IMG/VR virus record: IMGVR_UViG_2693429524_000013
Reading direction: 5' to 3' (one strand)
Origin: a virus
Lineage: Duplodnaviria > Heunggongvirae > Uroviricota > Caudoviricetes
Length of the DNA: 13,512 bases
Position numbers and translations under genes: made by a program. Every line of letters begins with the position of its first letter. The stretch's first letter is position 1. The notes under the pieces are model-generated. The model had not been told where the DNA came from, searched no databases, and saw only the letters and a program-made list of their open reading frames with translations. This document shows positions 236-13,512 of this stretch, one piece after another.

Positions 236-694
236 TCAACCTCTCCCCACATTTGACCAGTATTTGATTGCACCGATCAAATCATCATAGTGGCGCATTG
301 CATCATTGAAGCCTTTATAGCTTGCCCATTGTGGTGAAACTTTGTTATTGCTGAATTGCCCACTAATCAGGATAGTCTCCAGAATGTCGGCGTATCGCTT
401 GCCAATTCGCTTCCTGACGGCCTCAGAGCTTCCACCCTTTACGATTGCATTAATCAGGGCTTTTGTGTGTCTCAGGCTCTCATAGAGCATTGCAGCGTGG
501 GCAGATTCCATAAATGAGCGTTTAGGCAAATCACCCCACCCCTCAGAATGAATTGCTGCCAGTGTGGCGTAATTCAGGCCGCTATAGTGTTTCCCGTCAT
601 CCCAGCCAACCGCTACACCTTCCATCTGTGAGAGCTCTTTATGCAGCTTATCCATCATGCGCTTGTCTATGGTGCACCGGACTTTCGGACTCAT
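236..694 (-). CDS. phage virion morphogenesis protein, HK97 gp10-like head-tail joining / tail-completion family (152 aa)
   Basis: Its ATG overlaps the upstream stop (ATGA at 691-694), indicating translational coupling. The segment NYATLAAIHSEGWGDLPKRSFMESA resembles the YA..hEfG...P.RPF motif of HK97 gp10-type proteins. It sits in an operon with capsid genes. Family assignment is from memory only. Confidence 0.55.
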   Translation of the reverse strand: MSPKVRCTIDKRMMDKLHKELSQMEGVAVGWDDGKHYSGLNYATLAAIHSEGWGDLPKRSFMESAHAAMLYESLRHTKALINAIVKGGSSEAVRKRIGKRYADILETILISGQFSNNKVSPQWASYKGFNDAMRHYDDLIGAIKYWSNVGRG

Positions 695-1503
695 TTGTTG
701 ATCTCCGTGATGTCATCAAGCAACATGTTGGCCTTATCAATCATCGTTTCGTGGAACTCATTCGACACAACAGACTTATCACCTGCGGCAATCTTTCCCG
801 CTGCCTCTCCCTGTGCATATTCCCCGCGATGCTTAGCCCTGGTTGATTTCGTAGCAGCATTGCCAGCGTTACTACCCTCTTTAGCACTATTAACAGCACC
901 CTTTTGCTGTGTTTTGTTCACCTTCTTACTGTTAGTGAAAACTCCGGCATTTTCGACCATCTTCACCTTGAAGGTGCGGAATTCTTCAAAGGTGCAATCA
1001 ATAGTGATGCAGTCACCGGAGGAAGAGCTACGCTTAACTTCACATTTCGTCATGATGAAGTTCTCAAGGAGTCCGGCATCTTCACTCACCAGGCTAACAA
1101 GCTGGCGCTTGTCTCTCATTTCCATAAGTGCCTGAACAGCGGCAGCAGGGCGCATAGATTCACGGGGATTATCTGGATCAGTGTTCCGGTCGATGTAGTT
1201 CTCTTTCCGGATGATATGAGGAGAAGAGGTAATAATGCCCGTAAAGCTGACAGATTTATCTTTAATGACGGCATGGTCTGACATGGTGGTGCCATCCTCG
1301 ACCGCATAGCTCGATTTCTCAACAGGGAACGAATAGCTGACATCAGAGATAGAGTCAAAGAAGATAGCCACGTTATCGGTATAGTTGAAGCCATCCATTA
1401 TATTTTTGTTTTGTGAATATCCCCCACACATAACAGTGAATGCAGGAGATCTCGACTCAGCTTGTTTTGCAGCTGTCAGAGCATCATTAGCCATATTAAA
1501 CAT
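691..1503 (-). CDS. hypothetical virion structural protein with a Lys/Ala/Gly-rich C-terminal low-complexity tail (~270 aa from ATG 1503 or 1494; the track ORF extends to a TTG at 1611)
   Basis: Long minus-strand ORF coupled to the downstream gene. The 1611 start is a TTG with no SD. GGAGG lies just upstream of ATG 1503 and ATG 1494. The central segment SFPVEKSSYAVEDGTTMSDHAVIKDKSVSFTGII looks like a beta-rich tail/baseplate-type fold, but no family is recognised with certainty. Confidence 0.6.
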   Translation of the reverse strand: MFNMANDALTAAKQAESRSPAFTVMCGGYSQNKNIMDGFNYTDNVAIFFDSISDVSYSFPVEKSSYAVEDGTTMSDHAVIKDKSVSFTGIITSSPHIIRKENYIDRNTDPDNPRESMRPAAAVQALMEMRDKRQLVSLVSEDAGLLENFIMTKCEVKRSSSSGDCITIDCTFEEFRTFKVKMVENAGVFTNSKKVNKTQQKGAVNSAKEGSNAGNAATKSTRAKHRGEYAQGEAAGKIAAGDKSVVSNEFHETMIDKANMLLDDITEINK

Positions 1504-1699
1504 GCCTCCAAATTGGTCCACTTCTTTCGCTGGCTTAGCCAGGTGACTAAGGTCACCCCTTCGGGCGTGAGTGGATTTAGCTAAAGCTAAACCTGCAAAA
1601 GATGCAGGCAAAATAGAACTTATCGTTGCCCTGCTTAAAATCTGCAGAAAATACAGGGCAGTTATTCGTTAGAATCGCTTATAGCTCTTCCCGAGAGCG

Positions 1700-1951
1700 T
1701 TATTTTGCAAAACGATTATGGGCATTCAGGGCTTTTTTGCGGTCCTGTGCCTGTTTTCGTGCAATAAAATGTTCGAAAGTCTCGGCCCAGGTGCATTTAT
1801 TATATTCACGGTATTTATGCATAGCCTGGCGGCTAACGTCATAGCAGGCGGCAAATGTGGAGATACGCAGGAATTCCGGCAGATCCTCGTCATCGATATG
1901 GATAATATCAAAAGGCACGTCGTCACGGTCGCCGTATAAAACAATTTTCAT
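1700..1951 (-). CDS. small HTH DNA-binding protein (83 aa from ATG 1951; the track start at 1960 is a GTG)
   Basis: GAGGTG SD lies 6 nt upstream of ATG 1951. The segment ISTFAACYDVSRQAMHKY reads as helix-turn-helix. Its position between the capsid gene and the next structural gene is unusual. Confidence 0.6.
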   Translation of the reverse strand: MKIVLYGDRDDVPFDIIHIDDEDLPEFLRISTFAACYDVSRQAMHKYREYNKCTWAETFEHFIARKQAQDRKKALNAHNRFAK

Positions 1952-1983
1952 AAAAGACACCTCAAAAACTTAAGACGGGGATA

Positions 1984-2036
1984 ATAAAAAAAGGGAAGAG
2001 GGAAAGACCTATCCCCGATCTCTCACCTCTTCCCTT
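1984..2036 (-). terminator. strong rho-independent terminator after the major capsid gene
   Basis: Perfect 11-bp stem AAGGGAAGAGG (1991-2001) / CCTCTTCCCTT (2026-2036). On the minus strand it is followed by a run of 7 U (plus-strand A run 1986-1992). The plus side has TGCTTTTATTT, so it may act bidirectionally. Confidence 0.8.
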
Positions 2037-2047
2037 TGCTTTTATTT

Positions 2048-2062
2048 GGCCTTCGAAGAAGG
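2048..2062 (-). repeat. copy of the CCYTC-NNN-GARGG-CC mini-hairpin, immediately 3' of the capsid stop codon
   Basis: The minus strand reads CCTTCTTCGAAGGCC. This matches 14 of 15 positions of 6650-6664 (CCTTCTACGAAGGCC). Confidence 0.6.
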
Positions 2063-2065
2063 ACC

Positions 2066-3112
2066 TTATTTAGCCTTGGCTTTTGCCAGAGCAGCGGCGG
2101 CGGAGTTACTAACACTCACTTTAACCACAACTTCAGGCATCATGTTCATGAAAGCATAAGAGGATTCAATGAAGATTTCTCGTTTACCTCTGGACTCTTC
2201 CATATACATGAAAGCTTCACGTGCAGCGCCGTTTGCAAGCTTCAGGTTGCGAGCGCAAGGGCCGAAAAATTGAGTATAAACGCCCACCATATCGCCTAAC
2301 GCATGTGGCTGGAATTGTGGGACCAGATAAGCAGTATTCTCTGGCAGACTATCCATTTGCACCACACGCAGGGCTAAGCCCGGAATGCGGAAGGTCGGGA
2401 AGCCCGGCAGAATATCCTCAGGGAACATCAGGCCTTTGTCAGTGATATTTTGATTGCCGAACAACAGCACCTTACGGAGCAGTTCATCAGTCTGAATTGC
2501 AGCAAAGAGTTCAGCACGGCAGAACAGGGTGAAACCACGCAGAGCACGAACGACACCACGCTGTTTAACCTTGCTCAGTGCAACCAGGTCCTGCAGCTGT
2601 TTAAGGATATCTTTAGCTAAATCCACTTCTGAAGTGGTTTGCTGTGCGCCCAGCAGTTCGCACACATTCAGTTCTTTACCCTTGGTGAGGATAATTTTGT
2701 TCTCAAAGAGAGCAAGCTGGCGTGCTTCTTCGTGGGTCTGGCGTAAGCCTTCGCCAAGCTGAATAACACGACGAGCGGTTACAGACTCTAAATTCTCTTC
2801 GGAATCTTTGCCCGGAACGCGGATACCCTGCCAGTCAGAAGGATAAATAGCACTTGATGCGGCAGTGAATGCCATATCACCCGTGCCCGTTTCACGCTCA
2901 TCTGCGGTAATGGTCGCCATCTGTTCACCGTAGCGAGGATACTGACCGAAAGCAGATTGTTTCACCTGGCGAACTTTGTCATATTCAAATTTAAAGGTAT
3001 TGCACAGAGCAGTAGTGTTGAAGATATCCATTGCTGAAATAATCTGGTTATCCAGCGGGATGTCTTTAATCAGACCACACAGATCGCGAACTTCGAATTC
3101 TTTCTTAGCCAT
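2066..3112 (-). CDS. major capsid protein, lambda gpE-like family (348 aa from ATG 3112)
   Basis: AAGGAGG SD lies 6 nt upstream of ATG 3112; the track start at 3118 is a TTG. Size (~350 aa), position directly after a decoration-protein gene, and overall sequence character match the phage major capsid protein E family. A strong terminator lies downstream. Confidence 0.8.
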   Translation of the reverse strand: MAKKEFEVRDLCGLIKDIPLDNQIISAMDIFNTTALCNTFKFEYDKVRQVKQSAFGQYPRYGEQMATITADERETGTGDMAFTAASSAIYPSDWQGIRVPGKDSEENLESVTARRVIQLGEGLRQTHEEARQLALFENKIILTKGKELNVCELLGAQQTTSEVDLAKDILKQLQDLVALSKVKQRGVVRALRGFTLFCRAELFAAIQTDELLRKVLLFGNQNITDKGLMFPEDILPGFPTFRIPGLALRVVQMDSLPENTAYLVPQFQPHALGDMVGVYTQFFGPCARNLKLANGAAREAFMYMEESRGKREIFIESSYAFMNMMPEVVVKVSVSNSAAAALAKAKAK

Positions 3113-3123
3113 CTTCAACCTCC

Positions 3124-3459
3124 TTATTGTGCAACACGCAAATCGCCATTGCTGGCAGCGATAACAGCGGCTAAGCCGTCTTTATCCACGTAGGCCGGAT
3201 TGATGTAGCAACCTTTGTTCGCAACAACGATAAAAGCGTCACCAACCTCAGCACGTTCTACAACCAGCAGCGGAGTTTTATCTGTGTGCGTTGCTTTAAC
3301 GAAGGTCTCAACCTCGCCAGCCTCAGTAACCACAACAACAGTGCCAGCCGGAATCTCAGCTTTAACTTTGTTTTTAATCTCAACGTCGCGAATACTAAAT
3401 TGCTCATCTGCGGCGTATGAAATGATGTGTCCGCGTGTGCGGATAGTCATATCTCTCAT
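3124..3459 (-). CDS. head decoration (capsid-stabilising) protein, gpD-like / DUF2190-like (111 aa)
   Basis: 111 aa beta-rich protein encoded immediately upstream of the gpE-like capsid gene, matching the lambda D-E order. AGGTGA SD precedes ATG 3459. The segment LLVVERAEVGDAFIVVANKGCYINPAYV resembles decoration-protein cores. Confidence 0.6.
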   Translation of the reverse strand: MRDMTIRTRGHIISYAADEQFSIRDVEIKNKVKAEIPAGTVVVVTEAGEVETFVKATHTDKTPLLVVERAEVGDAFIVVANKGCYINPAYVDKDGLAAVIAASNGDLRVAQ

Positions 3460-3584
3460 TTGATCACCTGCGATTTAAATTAACTCCCCTCAAAGAGTTC
3501 CGGTATAACCTCTCAAACCGCGACAGGCTCGGGCCGAAAAGTTATGCCGGAAATCTAAAGGGAAATTGATACAAGGAAAGGGAG

Positions 3585-3614
3585 ATAGCCCCGCACCGTC
3601 CAAGCGGGGGCTAT
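3585..3614 (-). terminator. GC-rich stem-loop in the leader of the capsid operon (possible attenuator)
   Basis: ATAGCCCCGC (3585-3594) pairs with GCGGGGGCTAT (3604-3614) with one bulge. On the minus strand it is followed by CUCCCUUUCCUUG, which is only moderately U-rich. Confidence 0.3.
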
Positions 3615-3787
3615 TCCATATGGGGAAAACCAACAACAGTTGGCTGATAGTTCACAGTATGGTTACGGTTACTAGAGAGCACTATCACGAAAGGCACTCC
3701 CCCGAATCAGTTCAGGCTGCGGTCACATCAGCGGGGAAATACCTTTCGGGATAGCTACCCACACAGAAAACCCGCAAAAGAAAACTG

Positions 3788-3796
3788 TGTGGATAA
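3788..3796. promoter_or_regulatory. consensus DnaA box (TGTGGATAA = TTATCCACA)
   Basis: Exact 9/9 match to the R-type DnaA box. It is a single copy in the non-coding leader. Confidence 0.3.
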
Positions 3797-3943
3797 CTAG
3801 CCCAATAGGAGAATTAATCGACCACTCAACGATGATCAGGGTAGTGTTATTTATAAGGCGGCACCGCTACCTGGTCGCCGTTACTTTGGAGGAAAATACG
3901 GCAAATCAAGATCTTCTCACATTGATATTGACGCCATATGTAT

Positions 3944-3972
3944 ATTATATCAGTATTTACTCACATTGTCAA
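3944..3972 (-). promoter_or_regulatory. perfect-consensus sigma70 promoter firing leftward toward the capsid operon
   Basis: The minus strand reads TTGACA (3972-3967), a 17-nt spacer, then TATAAT (3949-3944), with a TGn extended -10 (ctgaTATAAT). The -35 context is TTGACAAT, as in the three rightward promoters. Confidence 0.75.
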
Positions 3973-4070
3973 CACCCTGATTATATAAATTCTAATAATT
4001 AGCGTAGTAACGGTATTTTCAGACCTCTATCAATCCCATCAATACGTCACCCCACCCTTTAGACATATAC

Positions 4071-4101
4071 ATCTATCACTACTTTATAAAGCCTGATAGA
4101 T
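4071..4101. promoter_or_regulatory. operator-like inverted repeat ATCTATCA-N15-TGATAGAT
   Basis: 8-bp perfect arms at 4071-4078 and 4094-4101 with a central TTTATAAA. It is part of a set of five CTATCA/TGATAG hexamers between 4027 and 4222. Confidence 0.35.
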
Positions 4102-4195
4102 ATCCGTTGATCCTGATCAAGGTTTTCCGGGGATTTACCCGGTTATAGTTCGAATCAAGGAAGGGGAGCATTGATAGCACCCAAACCGAACAAAC

Positions 4196-4213
4196 AAATC
4201 AACTTCTCGCAAA
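4196..4213 (+). repeat. 18-nt motif AAATCAACTTCTCGCAAA, copy 1
   Basis: Identical to 4739-4756. It ends exactly 11 nt before ATG 4225. Confidence 0.85.
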
Positions 4214-4224
4214 AGGTGATAGTT

Positions 4225-4347
4225 ATGGGTATCAAGAACAGTGCCAGCGCATGGCAAAAGGCCAGGTTTCATCACCCACACATTGTTAAGGCAATTGAGG
4301 TGGTTGGAGTGTTAGCCCTGATGTTAGCTCTGTGTGTGGAGGTGTGA
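4225..4347 (+). CDS. 40-aa small membrane peptide (MGIKNSASAWQKARFHHPHIVKAIEVVGVLALMLALCVEV)
   Basis: Not in the ORF track because it is under 60 aa. AGGTGA SD lies 7 nt upstream. It has a hydrophobic C-terminal helix. Its stop is followed 1 nt later by another SD-led ATG (4349, 22 codons). Confidence 0.45.
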   Translation: MGIKNSASAWQKARFHHPHIVKAIEVVGVLALMLALCVEV

Positions 4348-4449
4348 GATGGGCAAAGGAGGCAAAGCATTTTTTAATAGGTCTGGCTATCCTGGATGTT
4401 CTACTAATCATGATTGAGCGGAGTTTATGAACAGCATTGAGAGGAGTTT

Positions 4450-4710
4450 ATGACGGGGGCTAAAGATATCAGGAGACTGAGGGAAGAGCTGATAGCTGAA
4501 ATTAAAGCTAAGGCAAAGCAAATGGAGATAGCCGCACAAATGGATGTAGCGGAACAGATGTACAAGATGGTTGAAGAGGGAACACCACGACAGGTTATCG
4601 CTAAAACCTTCGGTGTGGGGATCGCCACCGTGCACAGAAGGCTGAAAGCCTATGCCGACTACCACAACATTGAGAGAGGGGAGGATGGGAGATTTAAGAA
4701 GAATAAATAG
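4450..4710 (+). CDS. small coiled-coil plus C-terminal HTH DNA-binding protein (86 aa)
   Basis: GAGGAG SD is present. The segment TPRQVIAKTFGVGIATVHRRLKAY is a resolvase/sigma-region-4-style HTH. Its ATG overlaps the stop of an 8-codon uORF (4427-4453). GGAGTTTATGA is duplicated at 4420-4430 and 4443-4453. Confidence 0.75.
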   Translation: MTGAKDIRRLREELIAEIKAKAKQMEIAAQMDVAEQMYKMVEEGTPRQVIAKTFGVGIATVHRRLKAYADYHNIERGEDGRFKKNK

Positions 4711-4738
4711 TGTGAACAGTCCAATAGGTTATTAACTT

Positions 4739-4756
4739 AAATCAACTTCTCGCAAA
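4739..4756 (+). repeat. 18-nt motif AAATCAACTTCTCGCAAA, copy 2
   Basis: Identical to 4196-4213. It ends exactly 11 nt before ATG 4768. Confidence 0.85.
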
Positions 4757-4767
4757 GGGGTACCACT

Positions 4768-5289
4768 ATGTTATTCCAGAAAGACAAAGAATCAGTAAAT
4801 AAAAGGCTTTTTAAAGAACTGGTAAAAATGTTCTTTCAGTACACTGCAGCGTTTTTGATAGCCGGGCCTTGGTTAATGGCTATCTGTTTTTACCCTGCTA
4901 CCTTGTTTATTGGCAGTAGCAAGTTCGGCGATGGCCCGTTTCATGTGGATATTGGTTTTATAGATTCTCTCCTGATCCGTCCTATAAATGCTGTTCTCAA
5001 TGCTTTCTACTTCCCAACTAGTCTAGAGGGGTGGGCGGTAACCTGGGGTGTTTTAGGCTTAGCATATGTATATTGGTTGGTTGGCTTTTTGTGGGGTGCA
5101 ATCTGTGCTCTCCTCGATATTGATACAGGATCAAGCCGTAGGAGTAGTGGTAATAATAGCGGAGCGGGTGTATATGCACACGTAGGTACCAGAGGGGTAA
5201 GTATCACCGCAGGTACCCGATTCGCTGGCGGCTGGCTGAGTATAGGCAAACGCGGCGTTAGTTGGAGAAAAAGCAAAAAACTGTTCTGA
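4768..5289 (+). CDS. integral membrane protein (173 aa) with a Gly/Ser/Arg-rich C-terminal tail reminiscent of DUF4236
   Basis: Two long hydrophobic segments are present: FFQYTAAFLIAGPWLMAICFYPATLFI and WAVTWGVLGLAYVYWLVGFLWGAICALL. The tail GTRGVSITAGTRFAGGWLSIGKRGVSWRK resembles DUF4236. A clean terminator follows. Confidence 0.75.
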   Translation: MLFQKDKESVNKRLFKELVKMFFQYTAAFLIAGPWLMAICFYPATLFIGSSKFGDGPFHVDIGFIDSLLIRPINAVLNAFYFPTSLEGWAVTWGVLGLAYVYWLVGFLWGAICALLDIDTGSSRRSSGNNSGAGVYAHVGTRGVSITAGTRFAGGWLSIGKRGVSWRKSKKLF

Positions 5290-5297
5290 CCTACCAG

Positions 5298-5318
5298 GGG
5301 GCCATCACGGCCCCTTTT
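5298..5318 (+). terminator. rho-independent terminator of the accessory cassette
   Basis: GGGGCC (5298-5303), loop ATCAC, GGCCCC (5309-5314), then TTTT. Confidence 0.8.
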
Positions 5319-5342
5319 CTATTTCCAGTCGCTATAGCTCCT

Positions 5343-5414
5343 GAGTAATTCCACTCCCTGAGGTCGTGATCAATTCCACACCCTACCCCCTGATCAATTA
5401 ACCCCTATTTAATG
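5343..5414. repeat. three ~24-bp direct repeats (TGATCAATTCCAC-type)
   Basis: AATTCCAC occurs at 5347-5354 and 5372-5379. TGATCAATT occurs at 5367-5375 and 5391-5399. A related 17-mer CCCCTGATCA(A/T)TTAACC occurs at 5387-5403 and 6284-6300. Confidence 0.6.
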
Positions 5415-5446
5415 GGTATTTAATGCCTATTTATTGATTTAATCCG
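5406..5446. repeat. AT-rich 11-bp phased repeats (TATTTAATG x3-4), resembling a DNA-unwinding element
   Basis: TATTTAATG at 5406-5414 and 5417-5425, TATTTATTG at 5428-5436, ATTTAATCC at 5438-5446. The period is 11 bp. Confidence 0.55.
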
Positions 5447-5514
5447 TTTTATGCCACAACCGCCCGGTTGACAGAGTAAGAGAGAGGGTGTAACCCTTTT
5501 TCGTAATACTAATG

Positions 5515-5530
5515 AAATCAATAAGTTAGC
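5515..5530 (+). repeat. 16-nt motif AAATCAATAAGTTAGC, copy 1 (matches IHF consensus WATCAANNNNTTR)
   Basis: Identical 16-mer at 13259-13274. The core AATCAATAAGTTA fits WATCAA-N4-TTR. Confidence 0.6.
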
Positions 5531-5584
5531 TTAATAGGCCTTTTCTCTATTTTTGTCAAATTTAACATACCCTAAAAAACTGCA

Positions 5585-5618
5585 AAATCTGGCTGCAAGA
5601 TTATCTGCAGCTGGATTT
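5585..5618 (+). other. 34-nt imperfect hairpin
   Basis: AAATCTGGCTGCA pairs with TGCAGCTGGATTT. There are 13 pairs, including two G-T pairs that are wobble only if the plus strand is read as RNA. Confidence 0.4.
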
Positions 5619-6520
5619 CTTACACCTCATTTTGTGGTATCACCCTGACTAGTTTGTGCATAAATTGAACAGTTTTTAACATTTCCTCTTCACCTGGTAA
5701 CCACACAAAAAGCTAAAAACGAGGCACAGATAATCTTAGAGGCCTATTTTCTTGTTATCACTCTGGAAACGTCGTAGAAGTGATTTTGATGAAAGGCGAC
5801 CTACCCTATTACACCCCCATTTTTTGTTATCACAATTGCATCCTGTGTGGCTATATGGCTATGTGCTGAAAGCGGTCTCGGGTGTGGGTGTCAGAAATAT
5901 CCATTAGCGGTATTTGAGCTTATGGGTAACTCGTCTGAGGTGCCAGGCAGGCGCTCCCCTACCTCCCTTTTTTCTTCTAACAATTCTCAAATATCACACC
6001 ACTGCCCACCACGTTGCTATTATGTTAATTCTTAAGCTTTGCTGTATGTTGTGCACATTATTTATTCAGGTGGCTGTACGTAAATTCTGTGCCCACTGAT
6101 CATGATTTTTAAATCAGATTTTGTAGTGCGGTTTCTTAGTGCTGATAAGATCTATTATGTTAAATGCAATTTTCCCAACCCTTCAAATCAATGACTTACA
6201 TGTAAGCATGCACTAACACCACACACAGCACATTAGACGTATAGATGGCTATATCCCACATATTTGATTGTTTTGTAGTCATTCCCCTGATCATTTAACC
6301 AGTATAGTTTGTTATCTGCAGACCACAAAATCGGAATTTACATCTGATTAACATAATCTGTTAGCATGATCACCATTACCCACACAACAATAACCCCATG
6401 TAAGCCTCTTCAGGCAATTTATCGGCGTGTTGGTGTGAACAGTCTTTCATGTTCTTTATGTATCAGTTGTCCTGTGTGGTGATTTGGTGGACTGCCCCAG
6501 GGGCCATACTTATGATGCCC

Positions 6521-6559
6521 GGTCAACATAGCTGTTGATAAAATCAACGGGTGTTGACC
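6521..6559. promoter_or_regulatory. twin palindromic operator-like sites
   Basis: TCAACA-tagc-TGTTGA (6523-6538) and TCAAC-gggt-GTTGA (6544-6557), with centres 20 bp apart. Outer arms GGTCAACA and TGTTGACC also pair. Confidence 0.45.
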
Positions 6560-6632
6560 TGCATATTTCCCACACATGAGAGGAAATCAGAGCAAAGAGA
6601 GAGGAGAGAGGTTTGTTAGTCACATATGGTGA

Positions 6633-6664
6633 TTTGAGCTCATCTCAAACCTTCTACGAAGGCC
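6633..6664 (+). repeat. two-hairpin module, copy A
   Basis: TTTGAG-ctcat-CTCAAA (6633-6649) abuts CCTTC-TAC-GAAGG (6650-6662), followed by CC. The 5' flank is TCACATATG. Confidence 0.65.
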
Positions 6665-6719
6665 TTTGCTAGTCAAAATCAAGTCACATTAGAGTCAAAT
6701 CAGATGCAATCAATCCCCC

Positions 6720-7051
6720 ACCTGTTGGGATTTCCCACATGTTCAACCATACACAGGAGCTAACCTGTTGGGATTTCCTACAACCCCTTTCAGTCATACT
6801 CAGGCACCACACCCCGGTAAATATTTCCCTACTACCCCGGAGAATTTCTCCGCACTACCTGTAAAGAATTTTCACACCTGTGTGTTTATACAATCATACT
6901 CTCCTGTTTTGCAGTCATTGCACCCATGATACACAGCCCTAACCTGTAAAATATTTTTACTACCCCGCCAATAATACGGCCCATACCTGTAAAATATTTT
7001 TACTACTACCTGTCAAAATCTTTTACTACTACCTGTAAAAATATTTGACAC
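6720..7051 (+). repeat. array of nine ~21-23 bp iterons, consensus ACCTGTAAAATATTTTTAC(TAC); candidate replication origin or centromere
   Basis: Units start at 6720, 6763, 6813, 6836, 6857, 6942, 6985, 7008 and 7031. The last three abut with exact 23-bp phasing. Each unit has an internal dyad. Confidence 0.8.
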
Positions 7052-7080
7052 TAATAGATAAAGTAATAGACCACACAATA

Positions 7081-7118
7081 GATCCCCCTAACCCCCCAGG
7101 GGGGAATGGGGAGGGATC
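7081..7118. repeat. G/C palindrome GATCCC...CCCCCC-A-GGGGGG...GGGATC followed by G-tracts
   Basis: C6-A-G6 lies at 7092-7104. Outer arms are GATCCC (7081-7086) and GGGATC (7113-7118). Downstream G-tracts (G6, G4, G3, G4) fit a loose G-quadruplex pattern. Confidence 0.6.
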
Positions 7119-7167
7119 AGAGAGTGGGGAAGGTTTTCTAAGGGAAAAGCTTAACCCACAAATGAAA

Positions 7168-7196
7168 GCCTAAAGAGCATTAGCGACTCTTTAGGC
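7168..7196 (-). terminator. 10-bp perfect hairpin, terminator-like on the minus strand
   Basis: GCCTAAAGAG (7168-7177) pairs with CTCTTTAGGC (7187-7196) across a 9-nt loop. The minus strand continues UUUCAUUUG. There is no U run on the plus side. Confidence 0.45.
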
Positions 7197-7208
7197 AATC
7201 TGTGTGTG

Positions 7209-7243
7209 GGGTGACAATGTATTCCATACATGACACGTCACCC
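7209..7243. other. nested hairpin
   Basis: Outer stem GGGTGAC (7209-7215) pairs with GTCACCC (7237-7243). The inner hairpin is ATGTAT-tcc-ATACAT (7217-7231). Confidence 0.5.
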
Positions 7244-7271
7244 TGCTCACATGTGTGGTCCACTTCGTGGA

Positions 7272-7310
7272 TTTGAGTTCACTCCGTAACTCAAACCCTC
7301 TACGAGGGCC
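7272..7310 (+). repeat. two-hairpin module, copy B (compensatory changes relative to copy A)
   Basis: TTTGAGTT-cactccgt-AACTCAAA (7272-7295) abuts CCCTC-TAC-GAGGG (7296-7308), followed by CC. It is preceded by CCAC-ttc-GTGG (7260-7270) and the flank TCACATGTG. Confidence 0.65.
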
Positions 7311-7356
7311 TTGTGTGGGGAGCGTAGTGCGATAGCACGTAGCTATATAATGTGGA

Positions 7357-7390
7357 GTCCGGATAAGAGACTTCTGTTTCCAATCCGGAC
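7357..7390. other. 8-bp perfect hairpin with an 18-nt loop
   Basis: GTCCGGAT (7357-7364) pairs with ATCCGGAC (7383-7390). Confidence 0.5.
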
Positions 7391-7410
7391 CGTTTAAGCG
7401 AGTGGTTTCT

Positions 7411-7436
7411 CGCGCGCGTGCACGCACACATATATA
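7411..7436. repeat. 26-nt perfectly alternating pyrimidine/purine tract (Z-DNA-prone)
   Basis: CGCGCGCGTGCACGCACACATATATA. It contains the 10-bp palindrome GCGTGCACGC (7416-7425). Confidence 0.7.
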
Positions 7437-7461
7437 AAGGATACACTCATAAATCGAAAAT

Positions 7462-7480
7462 AAGGCCCCTAAATGGCCTT
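7462..7480 (-). terminator. hairpin, terminator-like on the minus strand
   Basis: AAGGCC-cctaaat-GGCCTT. The minus strand continues AUUUUCGAUUU. Confidence 0.4.
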
Positions 7481-7616
7481 CTGGCTGCATTAACTAGTTT
7501 GAGTAGTGTAATTGCATTACCTGATGCTCAAATCGCGTTGTAGGGCCTCTTATGATGTTTGAGTTTAACACCCTCCAAAGTTTTAACAAAAAGTGCTCTC
7601 CCTCCATTGTGGGCCA

Positions 7617-7646
7617 TTGACAATCTTATTGCATAAATGCTATAAG
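7617..7646 (+). promoter_or_regulatory. strong sigma70 promoter P1 (rightward)
   Basis: TTGACA (7617-7622), 18-nt spacer, TATAAG (7641-7646), with TGc extended -10. The -35 context is TTGACAAT. Confidence 0.6.
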
Positions 7647-7744
7647 TTATTCTGTTTTTGACACGGTAGGGGACATTAATAATGCTTACCCCTTTGCTGT
7701 GGACTTGTTTGTACCTATAGCTCGCCTAAATGATAATGATTCCC

Positions 7745-7774
7745 ATTGACAATTGGTTGTCAATATGATAAGAT
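7745..7774 (+). promoter_or_regulatory. sigma70 promoter P2 (rightward) with an overlapping 20-bp palindromic operator
   Basis: TTGACA (7746-7751), 17-nt spacer, TAAGAT (7769-7774), with TGa extended -10. The operator ATTGACAA-ttgg-TTGTCAAT spans 7745-7764. Confidence 0.6.
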
Positions 7775-7936
7775 TATAGATAGTGGGAGAAACAGATCCG
7801 GAGGTCAACGTGGAACTGAGCGACGCTATAGCGATCATCAACCTGGCTGTAATGTGGTGCGGTGTTGCCTACATAGCCGGAGTAACTGCAATCGACAACC
7901 TTGAAGAAAAAATGATAGATAAATACAAAAAGATTG

Positions 7937-7965
7937 TTGACAATCTCGCAAATAGCTGATAAAAT
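7937..7965 (+). promoter_or_regulatory. strong sigma70 promoter P3 (rightward)
   Basis: TTGACA (7937-7942), 17-nt spacer, TAAAAT (7960-7965), with TGa extended -10. The spacer contains TCTCGCAAA (7944-7952), the core of the 18-nt motif. Confidence 0.7.
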
Positions 7966-8016
7966 ATAAAGCATAGGGTAATTCTCATCATAGTGAATTT
8001 TCCTTTAATGAACTGG

Positions 8017-8317: not shown

Positions 8318-9202
8318 ATGGCAAACAATAAACTGGGGGCACATTTCACCCCCATTTTTAAACGTTTTATCAAGTATAATTTTGAAAATCCAATTGCAAA
8401 AACTACAACAGGCAAAGAGAGATTTAATTTAAATGCGACGGAATTGATAATTTACGGGGAAATGGTTGGCTTTCATTTAAACGGCAAAGAAATATTCATC
8501 TCGGAGCAGACCTTAGCAGATGATTGGGATTTTTCAAGACCAACGATTATTAAAGCTATTAAATCTCTAGTAAATGCTGGGATTATTTCTAAAGATAACC
8601 GGAAAGGCAAATCTAACATTTACAAACTGTTAATTACACCTGAGCAGTTTGATAAAATGTGCGATGAGCAGGGTATTAAAACCTTAGACAGTGTGGGAGA
8701 CAGCAAAGAGGCACCTGCTACACAGGCCCAAGATAATCAACAGGAAGCCCCAAAACAAGCCACACAGCAGCCTGAAAAGCCCGAGGCAATGCAATCCCCT
8801 TCCCAACCTAAAAAAGAACACAGAGAACGCCGTAGAGACGCTGGCAAACGTGAAATAGATGAGCACGGTTATCCGATTCTGACAAGCGATGAAATGAATG
8901 CCAGATATAAAGTAATTCAGGCCGCATTTAAAGATCAGAAGAGAATTAAATTATCTGAATTGCGTGATACATTTTACGGGCCGGAGGTGATGGATAAAAT
9001 TAAAGGCACTATTCCTGATAAAATCTGGAAAGAGGAAGATTACTGGCACCTGACAGAGCAGGCCCTTAAGGTAGCTCAACACGTGGTTAAAAGAGGCAAA
9101 TCAATTATTATTGATTCTATTAGTCATGGCTATGATGCACCGAAAGAAAGGTTGTGGAACAACTGCAAGCTTGTAAAAGGCGAATTGACAATTACAAAAT
9201 AA
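8318..9202 (+). CDS. replication initiator candidate: N-terminal winged-HTH (lambda O / replisome-organiser-like), Gln/Pro-rich linker, C-terminal domain (294 aa)
   Basis: The N-terminal segment ISEQTLADDWDFSRPTIIKAIKSLVNAGIISKDNRKGKSNIYKL is a classic wHTH of phage/plasmid initiators. A low-complexity linker APATQAQDNQQEAPKQATQQPEKPEAMQSPSQPKK follows. The three-part architecture resembles lambda O. Confidence 0.6.
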   Translation: MANNKLGAHFTPIFKRFIKYNFENPIAKTTTGKERFNLNATELIIYGEMVGFHLNGKEIFISEQTLADDWDFSRPTIIKAIKSLVNAGIISKDNRKGKSNIYKLLITPEQFDKMCDEQGIKTLDSVGDSKEAPATQAQDNQQEAPKQATQQPEKPEAMQSPSQPKKEHRERRRDAGKREIDEHGYPILTSDEMNARYKVIQAAFKDQKRIKLSELRDTFYGPEVMDKIKGTIPDKIWKEEDYWHLTEQALKVAQHVVKRGKSIIIDSISHGYDAPKERLWNNCKLVKGELTITK

Positions 9203-9240
9203 ACATTCTTATTTTTAAGTTCATCAAAGGAAAATTTAAA

Positions 9241-9387
9241 ATGTATGGCGATTTTGATTATTACCTGGAAAAGGAAAAATATTTTGAAGATGAACTATCA
9301 CAACATTTTTCATATTGGGAAGAATATTGTGGTTGGTTAGCTGAAGATCCAGCAGATGAAGAAAATGATTCTGACATCCCTTATTAA
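9241..9387 (+). CDS. 48-aa hyper-acidic, aromatic-rich early protein (track ORF 9154-9387, trimmed to ATG 9241)
   Basis: AAGGA SD lies 9 nt upstream of ATG 9241; the longer form would overlap the upstream gene by 49 nt. The sequence is MYGDFDYYLEKEKYFEDELSQHFSYWEEYCGWLAEDPADEENDSDIPY, with 16 of 48 residues Asp or Glu. Confidence 0.55.
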   Translation: MYGDFDYYLEKEKYFEDELSQHFSYWEEYCGWLAEDPADEENDSDIPY

Positions 9388-13258: not shown

Positions 13259-13274
13259 AAATCAATAAGTTAGC
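13259..13274 (+). repeat. 16-nt motif AAATCAATAAGTTAGC, copy 2 (IHF-consensus match)
   Basis: Identical to 5515-5530. It lies 12 nt after the tape measure stop. Both copies are preceded by TAATA(C/T). Confidence 0.6.
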
Positions 13275-13296
13275 CTGACCGGATAAACTCCAGGCA

Positions 13297-13329
13297 AGAA
13301 AAAAGCCCCTAAGTGTTAACAAAGGGGCT
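13297..13329 (-). terminator. rho-independent terminator for a leftward (convergent) transcript
   Basis: AGCCCCT (13304-13310) pairs with AGGGGCT (13323-13329) across a 12-nt loop. The minus strand continues UUUUUUCUU. The plus side has no U run. Confidence 0.65.
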
Positions 13330-13350
13330 CTTCTCCGGTATCCTTTTGAT

Positions 13351-13466
13351 GCGGGGCAAAACCTGCTAACAAAAATCAACCTCTCGCGAGACTAATGTTA
13401 GCAGGTTGCCGGAAGGTAAGTCAACTCCGGTCTATAAACCTTAAAGCGACTATAAAATTGCCCCGC
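13351..13466 (-). ncRNA. candidate structured RNA (three helices) ending at the 13297-13329 terminator; strand and function uncertain
   Basis: Outer 9-bp helix: GCGGGGCAA (13351-13359) with TTGCCCCGC (13458-13466). Perfect 12-bp helix: AACCTGCTAACA (13360-13371) with TGTTAGCAGGTT (13396-13407). Third helix: CCGGA (13409-13413) with TCCGG (13426-13430). Confidence 0.3.
13373..13390 (+). repeat. 18-nt motif, diverged copy 3 (AAATCAACCTCTCGCGAG, 15/18)
   Basis: It lies in the 24-nt loop of the 12-bp hairpin. The core has become the 10-bp palindrome TCTCGCGAGA. Confidence 0.6.
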
Positions 13467-13512
13467 CAATTGTGATGATCCGACCTTTGAGGCGGGTCCG
13501 GTGCCCAGGGGG

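Follow-up and report, generated by a model that had tools for sequence, protein, structure and literature searches.

A predicted small antisense RNA and its two candidate target boxes on a phage-like plasmid of Escherichia coli

A circular plasmid of E. coli may well code for a small antisense RNA that acts in trans (minus strand, from about 13388 to about 13298). Judging from the sequence, this RNA would pair through its 5' end with 12-15 nt beside two ribosome-binding sites, those of a 40-codon gene (orf40) and of an exchangeable cargo gene. If this is correct, an sRNA that is absent from Rfam and has two targets is added on an undescribed plasmid family, and a pairing of 15 nt becomes a handle on the roles of the 40-aa peptide and the exchangeable cargo genes. 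It would also open a route to studying how phage-like plasmids keep such genes quiet. The mechanism is familiar, being ordinary bacterial gene control, and the chief value of the finding lies in giving access to the biology of this element.

The window, which is the whole stretch of 13,512 nt that was analyzed, is a complete circular E. coli plasmid of ~13.5 kb. It belongs to a large, so far undescribed family, widespread in E. coli and Shigella, that carries phage capsid and tail genes, and the plasmid resembles a phage satellite. The family has several hundred plasmids, e.g. NZ_CP020521.1 and NZ_CP178698.1, and searches of the literature retrieved no description of it. Matches in PLSDB were restricted to E. 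coli plasmids, and relatives of the capsid were found neither in IMG/VR nor among the GTDB species representatives. When the tape-measure protein was searched, the best 120 matches listed were all near-identical. Conservation was assessed with ~30 related plasmids from two lineages, 25 of which were mapped for the analysis of identical runs and bins. Coding DNA of the divergent lineage is 66-77% identical. Three more distant relatives (L047, L048 and L049; 31-42% capsid identity) are represented by short contigs that lack the motif, which is a point against the antisense RNA.

Motif copies on the replicon

The motif AAATCAACTTCTCGCAAA was detected in a scan of the whole window as an exact match at 4196-4213 and 4739-4756, both on the plus strand. 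As originally predicted, each of these copies ends 11 nt before an ATG (4225 and 4768, respectively), and their flanking sequences are unrelated to each other. The third copy proposed at that time was also confirmed. It reads AAATCAACCTCTCGCGAG (13373-13390, plus strand), agrees in 15 of 18 positions (three mismatches), is flanked by the arms of a perfect 12-bp inverted repeat, whose loop has 24 nt (13372-13395), and has the palindrome TCTCGCGAGA at its core. Beyond these three copies, there is no match with up to three mismatches on either strand of the window. Shuffled sequences had a mean of 0.05 matches, and three matches were reached in none of 200 shuffles. We calculate a probability of ~0.009 for one extra match with up to three mismatches in 27 kb. 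The original prediction had proposed a search of the whole genome, with the distance of each copy to start codons. As the window is the whole circular replicon, the scan is already this census, and it gives three copies in total, of which two are placed at -11 relative to a start codon.

One weaker match is of uncertain status:

3477-3494, plus strand: four-mismatch copy AAATTAACTCCCCTCAAA, opposite the leader of the minus-strand capsid operon

This copy is kept in most of the first relatives that were examined; ~0.1 matches with four mismatches are expected by chance (our own calculation).

A 9-mer core of the motif had also been assigned to a promoter spacer:

7944-7952, plus strand: 9-mer TCTCGCAAA in the spacer of a TTGACA-N17-TAAAAT promoter

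The 9-mer is indeed present, and its link to the motif is rejected. It is found in only 6 of ~30 related plasmids, and the spacer is the least conserved portion of this promoter (0.63-0.64), so that it is best taken as a chance occurrence. An enrichment of AAATCAA on the plus strand (12 copies vs 2.6 expected) was dropped because it is not kept in the divergent lineage.

Two boxes ahead of orf40 and an exchangeable cargo gene

Both exact copies are associated with one gene unit, which has the following features:

4196-4213, plus strand: motif copy 1, first target box (exact match), directly 5' of the Shine-Dalgarno sequence AGGTGA (4214-4219) of orf40
4225-4347, plus strand: orf40, first predicted target, 40 codons long and coding for a small peptide whose C-terminal half is hydrophobic
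4450-4710, plus strand: gene for an 86-aa helix-turn-helix (HTH) protein, between the two boxes (Pfam HTH_7, 27.5 bits vs a cutoff of 23.8)
4739-4756, plus strand: motif copy 2, second target box (exact match), ahead of the cargo gene and after the stop of the HTH gene (4710), immediately preceding the Shine-Dalgarno sequence GGGG
4768-5289, plus strand: variable cargo gene, second predicted target, here coding for a 173-aa polytopic membrane protein
5296-5316, plus strand: intrinsic terminator of the orf40-HTH-cargo unit, with 8 pairs (6 GC) followed by TTCTATTT (terminator scan)

Throughout the ~30 relatives, the core CAACYTCTCGCAAA with a Shine-Dalgarno sequence is always found ahead of two genes, the one for the 40-aa peptide and the swappable cargo gene. 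The core of box 1 is CAACTTCTCGC (4200-4210). Positions 4194-4217 are identical in 25 of 25 mapped plasmids, one of only five such runs of at least 20 nt, and the 20-nt bin 4200-4219 is the sole bin with 100% identity within 3440-5320. Copy 1 is exact even in the lineage with divergent coding DNA. The gene that follows, orf40, has 40 codons in every plasmid and is never exchanged. It occurs in nine amino-acid variants (pN/pS 0.35-0.51) and has no Pfam match; residues 22-40 have a Kyte-Doolittle hydropathy of +2.06.

In relatives, box 2 reads AATTCAACTTCTCGCAAA, AACTCAAC.., or aaatACAACCTCTCGCAAA / CAATCTCTCGCAAA. It is always present, even where the downstream gene belongs to a different family, and fills a gap of 34-57 nt within the operon. 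Three unrelated families of cargo genes follow box 2, with membrane or secreted products. The 173-aa protein, which has no Pfam or PADLOC match, is encoded in only ~23% of the plasmids and is elsewhere replaced by a 195-aa protein with a signal peptide or by a family of 186-236 aa. The swap begins exactly downstream of box 2 plus ATG. The terminator at 5296-5316 is the right edge of the cargo slot, and conservation resumes there. Both boxes are conserved despite a pS of 0.58-0.81 in orf40 and despite the replacement of the cargo gene, which counts in favor of antisense regulation.

Copy 3 and the predicted minus-strand RNA

Copy 3 is located in the intergenic region between the tape-measure and neck genes. 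The minus strand of this region has the following features:

13373-13390, minus strand: copy 3 read as anti-motif, with GCGAGAGGUUGAUUU (13387 to 13373) complementary to AAAUCAACUUCUCGC
13360-13407, no strand: perfect 12-bp inverted repeat with arms AACCTGCTAACA (13360-13371) and TGTTAGCAGGTT (13396-13407)
13395-13424, minus strand: predicted sigma70 promoter of the antisense RNA, TTGACT (13424 to 13419), 18 nt, TG-extended TAACAT (13400 to 13395)
13298-13388, minus strand: predicted small RNA, short form of ~91 nt, with 5' seed, linker and terminator hairpin, as deduced from promoter and terminator
13299-13329, minus strand: intrinsic terminator, stem AGCCCCT/AGGGGCT extended by G-U pairs, followed by U6
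13449-13476, minus strand: alternative upstream promoter candidate, ATCACA-N16-TATAGT, 9/12 (promoter scan of L003)

The predicted promoter scores 9/12 with TG in a promoter scan of the identical sequence of L003, and the predicted transcription start is 13388/13387. The terminator hairpin has -23.2 kcal/mol as minus-strand RNA vs -16.7 as plus-strand RNA, and a U-run is found on the minus strand only. A minus-strand region of 156 nt folds with z = -5.19. From these features we infer that an RNA is made and where it starts. The upstream promoter candidate would give rise to a long form of ~148 nt with a start near 13442; its spacing is not kept in the second allele described below. On the minus strand, the predicted -10 box overlaps with the 5' arm of the inverted repeat, which may be a hairpin that presents the loop, if the long RNA is made, or an operator. 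The anti-motif is invariant wherever the common allele of this region was recovered (all but L012 and L019, which are incomplete). GCGAGAGG is a stretch of the predicted seed, for which GCCUCAGG is named as an altered form for mutation.

The predicted RNA does not belong to any Rfam family at threshold (cmscan of the whole window with E up to 1, and of two sRNA regions with E up to 10), and no C4 family match was reported in the same searches. Subthreshold matches are ctRNA_p42d (RF00489; 23.6 bits vs a gathering threshold of 50), which covers only the terminator hairpin (13294-13334), and ohsC_RNA (RF02495; 19.4 bits, E = 1.2, vs a threshold of 50), mostly over the terminator. The conserved intergenic region has no phage match.

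A second, rare allele of this intergenic region is present in L030 and L042 and has only short blocks in common with the usual allele. Among these are the terminator arm AAAAAGCCCCT, the motif core TCAACTTCTCGC and AAGTCAACTC, which on the minus strand reads GAGTTGACTT, the TTGACT-type promoter block. In both alleles, the complement of copy 3 sits just after this promoter and ahead of a minus-strand intrinsic terminator. The distance from GAGTTGACTT/TTGACT to the seed is 31 vs 29 nt in the two alleles, and the distance from seed to terminator differs. The start is predicted on the first G of GCGAGA because the spacing between TTGACT and seed is nearly the same in both alleles. The similarity between copy 3 and the boxes ends at CGC in both alleles (CGCgag and CGCctg), which is the predicted start, while the boxes continue with AAA(A/G)G.

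The second allele keeps a 12-nt core in a T variant, and a motif match of at least 11 nt arose in 56 of 20,000 shuffles. The palindrome TCTCGCGAGA is lost. The 12-bp inverted repeat is absent as well and is thus not needed for keeping the anti-motif. The rare allele has a weak -10 box (CACACT, 3/6) that was not reported by the promoter scan. In both alleles, GTTGACTT is flanked by a 5-bp stem that differs in sequence between them; it could thus be the loop of an RNA hairpin rather than a -35 box, and the start would then be further upstream. The rare allele was not found in complete E. coli genomes. A metagenome search with a two-block pattern retrieved two plasmids with the common and one with the rare allele, plus chance matches. 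The seven matches to this pattern in IMG/VR were all chance matches and were discarded.

Pairing, alternative explanations and related systems

We propose that copies 1 and 2 are mRNA target boxes and that copy 3 is the gene segment for the matching seed. The RNA would be transcribed from the minus strand (~13388 to ~13298), from TTGACT-N18-TGnTAACAT to the intrinsic terminator, and its 5' end, GCGAGAGGUUGAUUU, would pair with AAAUCAACUUCUCGC just upstream of the Shine-Dalgarno sequences of orf40 and the cargo gene. Seed and box can pair over 15 contiguous nt, one of the pairs being G-U, with a duplex energy of -21.3 kcal/mol; in the rare allele, the pairing comprises 12 nt and is perfect. The locus itself aside, the two boxes are the only sites on either strand of the plasmid where at least 12 nt can pair; the next best sites have 10-11 nt. 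Complementarity, uniqueness on the plasmid, conservation, and a promoter-like and terminator-like context are thus demonstrated. Targets were searched with an ungapped seed scan, which replaced RNAduplex. Duplexes of the full-length RNA with all start regions were uninformative, being long and loop-rich everywhere.

The only substitutions seen in the box core are C/U changes opposite a G of the seed (T/C at position 9, and CAAC to CAAT in L014), and these retain pairing as G-C or G-U. The rare allele has an A at the variable seed position and pairs perfectly with T-type boxes. This covariation is minimal, as it consists of two transition-type changes that could be produced by mutation bias alone. 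Within the short RNA, the seed is predicted to be partly paired (P(unpaired) 0.22). Pairing accounts neither for the conserved AAA 3' of the box core nor for the perfect 12-bp inverted repeat.

The paired stretch of the mRNA, -29 to -15 relative to the start codon, would fall in the 30S binding region. The most likely outcome would be repression of translation, possibly with cleavage of the duplex, so that a membrane peptide that is potentially harmful, together with a cargo protein of the membrane or secreted type, would be kept silent during plasmid carriage. We infer repression rather than activation. The pyrimidine-rich half of the box can, however, pair with the adjacent Shine-Dalgarno sequence (predicted P(unpaired) 0.22-0.43), so that the RNA could activate instead. 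A much more speculative idea, to which we give little credence, is that the RNA and its two boxes are a switch between carriage and exploitation in an undescribed class of plasmid-borne phage satellites, silencing a holin-like or toxic 40-aa peptide together with an exchangeable surface or exclusion cargo. The burst of plus-strand transcription upon helper infection, or the loss of the plasmid, would out-titrate the RNA and both proteins would be released. If true, plasmid addiction, host killing and anti-phage cargo would be coupled to one interaction of 15 nt.

It is rather unlikely that the motif is instead a DNA operator, with a DNA-binding protein of the plasmid, e.g. the 86-aa HTH protein, binding three or four sites and controlling the orf40-HTH-cargo unit and the intergenic region. 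This HTH_7 protein is encoded between copies 1 and 2, and its PHROG matches are families of DNA-binding proteins. An A/T-rich, -10-like hexamer (ACAAAT, TTAAAT, CTAAAT or ATAAAT) abuts the core, so that a bound protein would cover a start site. Copy 3 forms the palindrome, and a related box, AAGTCAACTC, is found ~40 bp from it in both alleles, as for cooperative sites. The boxes themselves are, however, not palindromic, and in the second allele the 12-nt core alone was kept. Strand and distance to Shine-Dalgarno sequence and ATG (11-14 nt) are fixed for the boxes, while there is no fixed distance to a conserved promoter, and box 2 fills an intercistronic gap of just 34 nt in one lineage. The original suggestion of an operator that overlaps a weak sigma70 promoter agrees at best weakly with these data. 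The -35 region varies or is missing (TTGATA, GTGAAA, GGGACA and GGGGAA at copy 1), and no plus-strand promoter was reported in 3400-5450. Conserved -35 and -10 hexamers at proper spacing do not precede both copies.

The role of a conserved 5' leader in translational control, also considered in the original prediction, fits the evidence. Taken as a whole, the original interpretation stands in part. It missed the other strand of the hairpin copy, which is likely the gene for an antisense RNA that pairs with both leaders. We consider it improbable that the leader acts purely in cis, by forming an anti-Shine-Dalgarno hairpin, by recruiting an RNA-binding protein or an RNase, or by enhancing translation, and that copy 3 has no connection with it or serves as a decoy within the 3' UTR of the tape-measure mRNA. 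CUUCUC/CCUCUC can pair with AGGUGA, GGGG or GGAGA across a conserved GCAAA loop, which is consistent with the predicted accessibility of the Shine-Dalgarno sequence given above, and AAA plus Shine-Dalgarno 3' of the core is common to the boxes and not to copy 3. The predicted hairpins have, however, just 4-5 bp, include G-U pairs and differ between the boxes. A cis-acting leader also leaves unexplained why a copy of 12-15 nt is kept on the same strand in two diverged alleles, between a minus-strand promoter-like box and a terminator.

A contiguous promoter for a phage RNA polymerase or sigma-like factor, as initially suggested, or a late-activator site, by which a helper phage would switch on the genes at infection, is very unlikely. 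The motif has a T7-like length (~18 nt, contiguous, upstream of genes) and is followed by G-rich sequence, and helper-dependent control is plausible for a plasmid that resembles a phage satellite. However, profile searches of the ORFs found no RNA polymerase or sigma factor encoded on the replicon, and T7-type promoters precede several units, whereas only two of the three copies are gene-proximal here, one of them inside an operon. In a scan of the whole replicon, the capsid, replication and tape-measure operons were all without the motif. Transcripts that start at the motif would have leaders of at most 14 nt, and transcription from copy 3 would run into a convergent operon at its 3' end. Repeated copies were found in no sequenced phage and in no IMG/VR contig: a 34-nt query against 50,697 phage records gave scattered single weak matches only. 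The exact 18-mer has two matches in IMG/VR, both by chance and inside one unrelated ORF. Finally, a recombination linker at the boundary of an exchangeable cassette is hardly credible: cargo genes are exchanged exactly between box 2 plus ATG and the terminator at 5296-5316, but the gene after box 1 never is, there is no cassette beside copy 3, and no recombinase is encoded, the HTH_7 protein being devoid of a catalytic domain (Pfam).

The predicted antisense RNA resembles those of type I toxin-antitoxin systems with a trans-acting sRNA (zorO/orzO, shoB/ohsC, tisB/istR-1 and ralR/ralA). There, the sRNA pairs by its 5' end with 15-19 nt in the 5' UTR of a transcript that codes for a small hydrophobic peptide. 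OrzO uses its 5' end to bind 18 nt of the zorO 5' UTR, 15 continuous pairs being sufficient, and the 5' ends of OhsC and IstR-1 likewise act on transcripts that encode small hydrophobic peptides (PMC3919570). For RalA, complementarity in trans amounts to 16 nt (PMC4041452). As in these systems, orf40 codes for a hydrophobic protein of <60 aa, and continuous complementarity is in the range of ~15-19 nt (15 contiguous pairs; 12 perfect ones in the rare allele) for an sRNA that is itself predicted. The sRNA gene is, however, neither adjacent nor divergent, as the seed (13377-13387) is ~4.3 kb from orf40 (4225-4347) across the circle junction. The site abuts the Shine-Dalgarno sequence rather than being far upstream, and there is a second target ahead of an exchangeable cargo gene. 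There is no similarity in sequence or by covariance model, and toxicity of orf40 is only putative.

The immunity RNAs c4 of phages P1 and P7 and CI of P4 (Rfam C4 family), the latter being an E. coli satellite phage also able to persist as a plasmid, are small RNAs that recognize two short boxes on their own transcripts (a2/b2 in P1, seqA/seqC in P4). They are processed from the transcript that carries the targets and act by occlusion of the ribosome site with Rho termination, or by premature termination. The RNA proposed here would share with them the two boxes, the phage or satellite-plasmid context and the silencing of genes that are kept off during carriage, but its gene is on the other strand and at a great distance from the targets. 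Enterobacterial Hfq-type sRNAs, e.g. RybB and OmrA/B, have conserved 5' seeds. Similarly, promoter box, 5' seed and terminator are conserved between the alleles here while the body varies, and the terminator is Rho-independent with a U-tail. Unlike RybB and OmrA/B, the RNA is plasmid-borne, and the targets identified so far are on the plasmid only.

A further observation in favor of the proposed antisense RNA concerns the replication operon. Its leader (7989-8014) and the start region at 9218-9243 are complementary to each other and show covariation across four sequence variants, so that RNA pairing to ribosome-binding regions recurs in this plasmid family.

The motif and its copies

Two exact copies of the 18-mer AAATCAACTTCTCGCAAA are found on the plus strand of the window, and an imperfect third copy lies far from them:

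4196-4213, plus strand: copy 1 (box 1), preceding orf40
4225-4347, plus strand: orf40, a 40-codon peptide gene
4739-4756, plus strand: copy 2 (box 2), preceding the cargo gene
4768-5289, plus strand: cargo gene, exchangeable between plasmids
13373-13390: copy 3, AAATCAACCTCTCGCGAG, with three mismatches

As originally noted, both exact copies end 11 nt before an ATG (4225 and 4768) and have unrelated flanks. Nothing but a Shine-Dalgarno sequence (AGGTGA for copy 1, GGGG for copy 2) separates them from the start codon. The description of copy 3 also holds: it is a 15/18 match that lies in the 24-nt loop between the arms of a perfect 12-bp inverted repeat (13360-13371/13396-13407), and it includes the palindrome TCTCGCGAGA. 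No further match with up to three mismatches exists on either strand of the window, and three matches were reached in none of 200 dinucleotide shuffles. The motif is real, and chance falls far short of explaining it. The additional 9-mer at 7944-7952 is indeed in the spacer of a promoter (TTGACA-N17-TAAAAT), but it could not be upheld as part of the system. Of the roughly 30 related plasmids, only six have it, and the spacer is where that promoter is conserved least; it is thus treated as a chance occurrence.

The boxes were compared among about 30 plasmids, including a divergent lineage (L012-L016) whose capsid protein shares 82% identity, and whose coding DNA shares 66-77% identity, with that of the window. 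Copy 1 is exact in all of them. It lies within one of the five invariant runs of at least 20 nt on the plasmid (4194-4217), and 4200-4219 is the sole fully conserved 20-nt bin within 3440-5320. This conservation persists despite a synonymous divergence of 0.58-0.81 between lineages in the adjoining downstream gene. The orf40 gene has 40 codons in every plasmid and occurs in nine amino acid variants (pN/pS 0.35-0.51); the C-terminal half of its product is strongly hydrophobic.

Copy 2 is constant in position, after the stop codon of a gene for an HTH_7 protein (86-89 aa) and before the next start codon, and in one lineage the gap that holds it is just 34 nt long. The gene that follows is exchangeable, with three unrelated families at this position in different plasmids: a polytopic membrane protein (173-176 aa), a signal-peptide protein (195 aa) and a third family (186-236 aa). 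The slot is bounded on the left by box 2 and the ATG and on the right by a terminator (5296-5316). Its occupants are membrane or secreted protein families, and none of the three has a match in Pfam or PADLOC. Over all copies, the consensus is CAACYTCTCGCAAA(A/G)G. Within the core, just two changes were seen: one position alternates between T and C, and CAAC is replaced by CAAT in L014, a member of the divergent lineage.

A predicted antisense RNA

Copy 3 is part of an intergenic region of about 480 nt that extends from the stop codon of the tape-measure gene (13247) to that of the neck gene (236). No other part of the plasmid is as well conserved. Identity between lineages is 94% and 90% (66-77% in genes), and the region is near-invariant in 13 aligned plasmids. 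Two plasmids from independent samples (L030 and L042) carry a very different, rare allele, which has only short same-strand blocks in common with the common allele. These are AAAAAGCCCCT (one arm of a hairpin beside the tape-measure stop), TCAACTTCTCGC (the T form of the motif core), AAGTCAACTC, GATAAACAGGC, TACCTGATAAAG and TTGATGCGG, the latter being out of order relative to the others. A motif match of at least 11 nt arose in 56 of 20,000 shuffles of the rare-allele region. This allele lacks both the 12-bp inverted repeat and the palindrome. The region may be a packaging (cos/pac) site. In its part spanning 13285-13512 and 1-235, GATAAACAGGC, TACCTGATAAAG and CCCCGCATCAAA are also present in the distant relatives L047 and L048 (31-42% capsid identity), at times shorter by 1-2 bases.

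The best-supported reading, held with moderate confidence from sequence comparison, is that the boxes are a pair of target sites for a predicted plasmid-encoded antisense sRNA. This kind of regulator is already well known; the element in which it lies is an undescribed phage-like plasmid. The complement of copy 3, GCGAGAGGTTGATTT, forms 15 contiguous pairs, one of them G-U, with AAAUCAACUUCUCGC (duplex -21.3 kcal/mol). The seed of the rare allele forms 12 perfect pairs (-18.7 kcal/mol). When the first 26 nt of the predicted RNA were scanned without gaps against both plasmid strands, the two boxes paired at 15 nt and all other sites at 11 nt or less. Such pairing would explain why variation in the box core is limited to C/U opposite G.

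Ahead of the seed on the minus strand, TTGACT-N18-TAACAT with a TG extension is found in the common allele, followed after 6 nt by (C)GCGAGAGG; this candidate promoter scored 9/12 with TG in a scan of the identical sequence from a related plasmid (L003). The rare allele has TTGACT-N17-CACACT and, after 6 nt, GCGAGAAG. Its -10 box is weak and absent from the scan output. TTGACT lies 31 nt (common) or 29 nt (rare) from the seed, so that the predicted start is the first seed G in both alleles. The likeness between copy 3 and the boxes stops at ...CGC in both alleles, as would be expected if the sequence beyond is promoter DNA and not RNA.

A GC-rich hairpin with a U-run begins on the minus strand 47 nt (common) or 0 nt (rare) past the seed. 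It is more stable in the minus-strand RNA than on the plus strand (-23.2 versus -16.7 kcal/mol in the common allele, -19.7 versus -17.7 in the rare allele), and only the minus-strand RNA has U residues after it. Conservation of the promoter box, the 5' seed and the terminator around a variable body is what enterobacterial base-pairing sRNAs usually show. In Rfam scans, no family membership was reached: ctRNA_p42d (23.6 bits) and ohsC (19.4 bits) stayed below thresholds of 50 and matched the terminator only, and C4 was absent from the output.

The small RNA would be transcribed from the minus strand, with a short form starting at about 13388 and ending at about 13298. Use of a further promoter (ATCACA-N16-TATAGT) could yield a long form that starts at about 13442 and whose hairpin loop would display the seed; in the short RNA, the seed is predicted to be partly paired. 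The 156-nt region for the long form has a fold z of -5.19. In both alleles, GTTGACTT is flanked by a 5-bp stem of differing sequence (CCGGA/TCCGG versus AGAGA/TCTCT), and thus may be a loop in a longer RNA instead of a -35 box.

On both target mRNAs, orf40 and cargo, the RNA would pair beside the ribosome-binding site. Repression is the favoured outcome, perhaps with cleavage by RNase III or RNase E, since the paired stretch (-29 to -15) overlaps the contact region of the 30S subunit. The pyrimidine half of the box is, however, predicted to pair weakly with the neighbouring Shine-Dalgarno sequence (P(unpaired) 0.22-0.43), so that RNA binding could instead open the site and activate translation. 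The two-box logic is reminiscent of P1 c4 and P4 CI. Among characterized systems, the trans-encoded sRNAs that serve as type I antitoxins come closest. OrzO uses its 5' end to pair with an 18-nt stretch of the zorO leader, 15 continuous pairs being enough; OhsC (19 nt) and IstR-1 likewise act via their 5' ends, and the targets of all three are mRNAs for small hydrophobic peptides (PMC3919570). RalA pairs over 16 nt in trans (PMC4041452).

Other readings of the motif

The perfect 12-bp inverted repeat and a conserved AAA 3' of the core are outside what sRNA pairing explains. An operator for the HTH_7 protein is possible, but the boxes are asymmetric and tied to the Shine-Dalgarno sequence rather than to any conserved promoter, and the palindrome of copy 3 is dispensable. 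A purely cis-acting leader element would leave unexplained why the third copy persists in both alleles with the same transcriptional surroundings. A cassette linker fits box 2 alone. The proposed promoter for a phage polymerase, here that of a helper phage, is poorly supported: the plasmid has no polymerase gene, the structural and replication operons have no preceding copies, and repeated copies were found in no phage searched.

The plasmid family and further RNA pairing

No nucleotide match was found among 50,697 phage records. The window aligns over its full length, at 89-94% identity, to circular non-mobilizable E. coli plasmids of 13.2-13.7 kb, and further such plasmids are present in complete RefSeq genomes. 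The relatives are continuous over its end-to-start junction; thus, the window is the whole replicon. It is organized as follows:

236-3459, minus strand: neck/tail-completion, Dit-like baseplate, small, major capsid and 111-aa proteins
4225-5289, plus strand: small proteins
5320-7780: about 2.4 kb without a listed ORF above 99 aa; ACCTGTAAAATATTTTTACTAC-like iterons at 6700-7050
8318-9202, plus strand: replication initiator
elsewhere, plus strand: several unknown proteins and a 700-aa tape-measure protein

The region 5320-7780 also contains an invariant block (5697-5718), and CCACACA recurs in it many times (12 copies on the plus and 8 on the minus strand). The capsid protein is lambda-gpE-like, and the family (plasmids of 13.2-14.3 kb) lacks terminase and portal. 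Capsid, Dit-like, neck, tape-measure and replication initiator genes in this setting make it a candidate plasmid-borne phage satellite. The family is large (412 protein clusters in a tape-measure search, the matches listed being on E. coli or Shigella contigs of about 13-14 kb) and isolated in sequence. The capsid protein has 29 relatives in 1.8 billion cluster representatives and none in IMG/VR or among GTDB species representatives. A literature search found no paper on this family, which is apparently undescribed.

Some minor observations concern the window and its relatives. A consensus sigma70 promoter with TG (TTGACA-N17-TATAAT; 3944-3972, minus strand) points toward the capsid operon and would give it a leader of roughly 480 nt; the divergent lineage has a visible equivalent (TTGACA-N17-TAAAAT). 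Opposite this leader, at 3477-3494 and 18 nt from the ATG at 3459, is a four-mismatch copy of the motif, kept in most of the first relatives examined (about 0.1 such matches expected by chance). On the capsid mRNA it resembles the predicted sRNA seed and could pair with the boxes. Within the same operon, a 20-nt inverted repeat (1570-1589/2608-2627; 95% complementary) has one arm within the capsid gene and its second arm upstream of the gene for the Dit-like protein, with about 0.005 expected by chance according to our own estimate. Another exact repeat is the 16-nt AAATCAATAAGTTAGC, found at 5515-5530 and 13259-13274, and AAATCAA occurs 12 times on the plus strand (2.6 expected); the divergent lineage keeps neither the repeat nor the enrichment. 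L009 (NZ_CP043822.1, 39,610 bp) is a plasmid record with about three tandem copies of the element, one degraded, perhaps as a multimer or through an artefact of assembly.

Complementarity to start regions is also seen elsewhere. Positions 7989-8014, in the 5' leader of the replication operon, are complementary (22/26) to 9218-9243, where a 48-aa ORF 1.2 kb downstream has its Shine-Dalgarno sequence and start region. Both segments covary, with four sequence variants among relatives, which suggests that long-range or trans RNA pairing controls this ORF. The divergent intergenic region of L048 (31% capsid identity) contains an 18-nt perfect complement of the Shine-Dalgarno sequence and ATG of its Dit gene (1564-1581/3745-3762), which may be another trans antisense arrangement. 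Taken with the covariation in the replication leader, this makes RNA pairing to start regions look like a recurring device in these elements.
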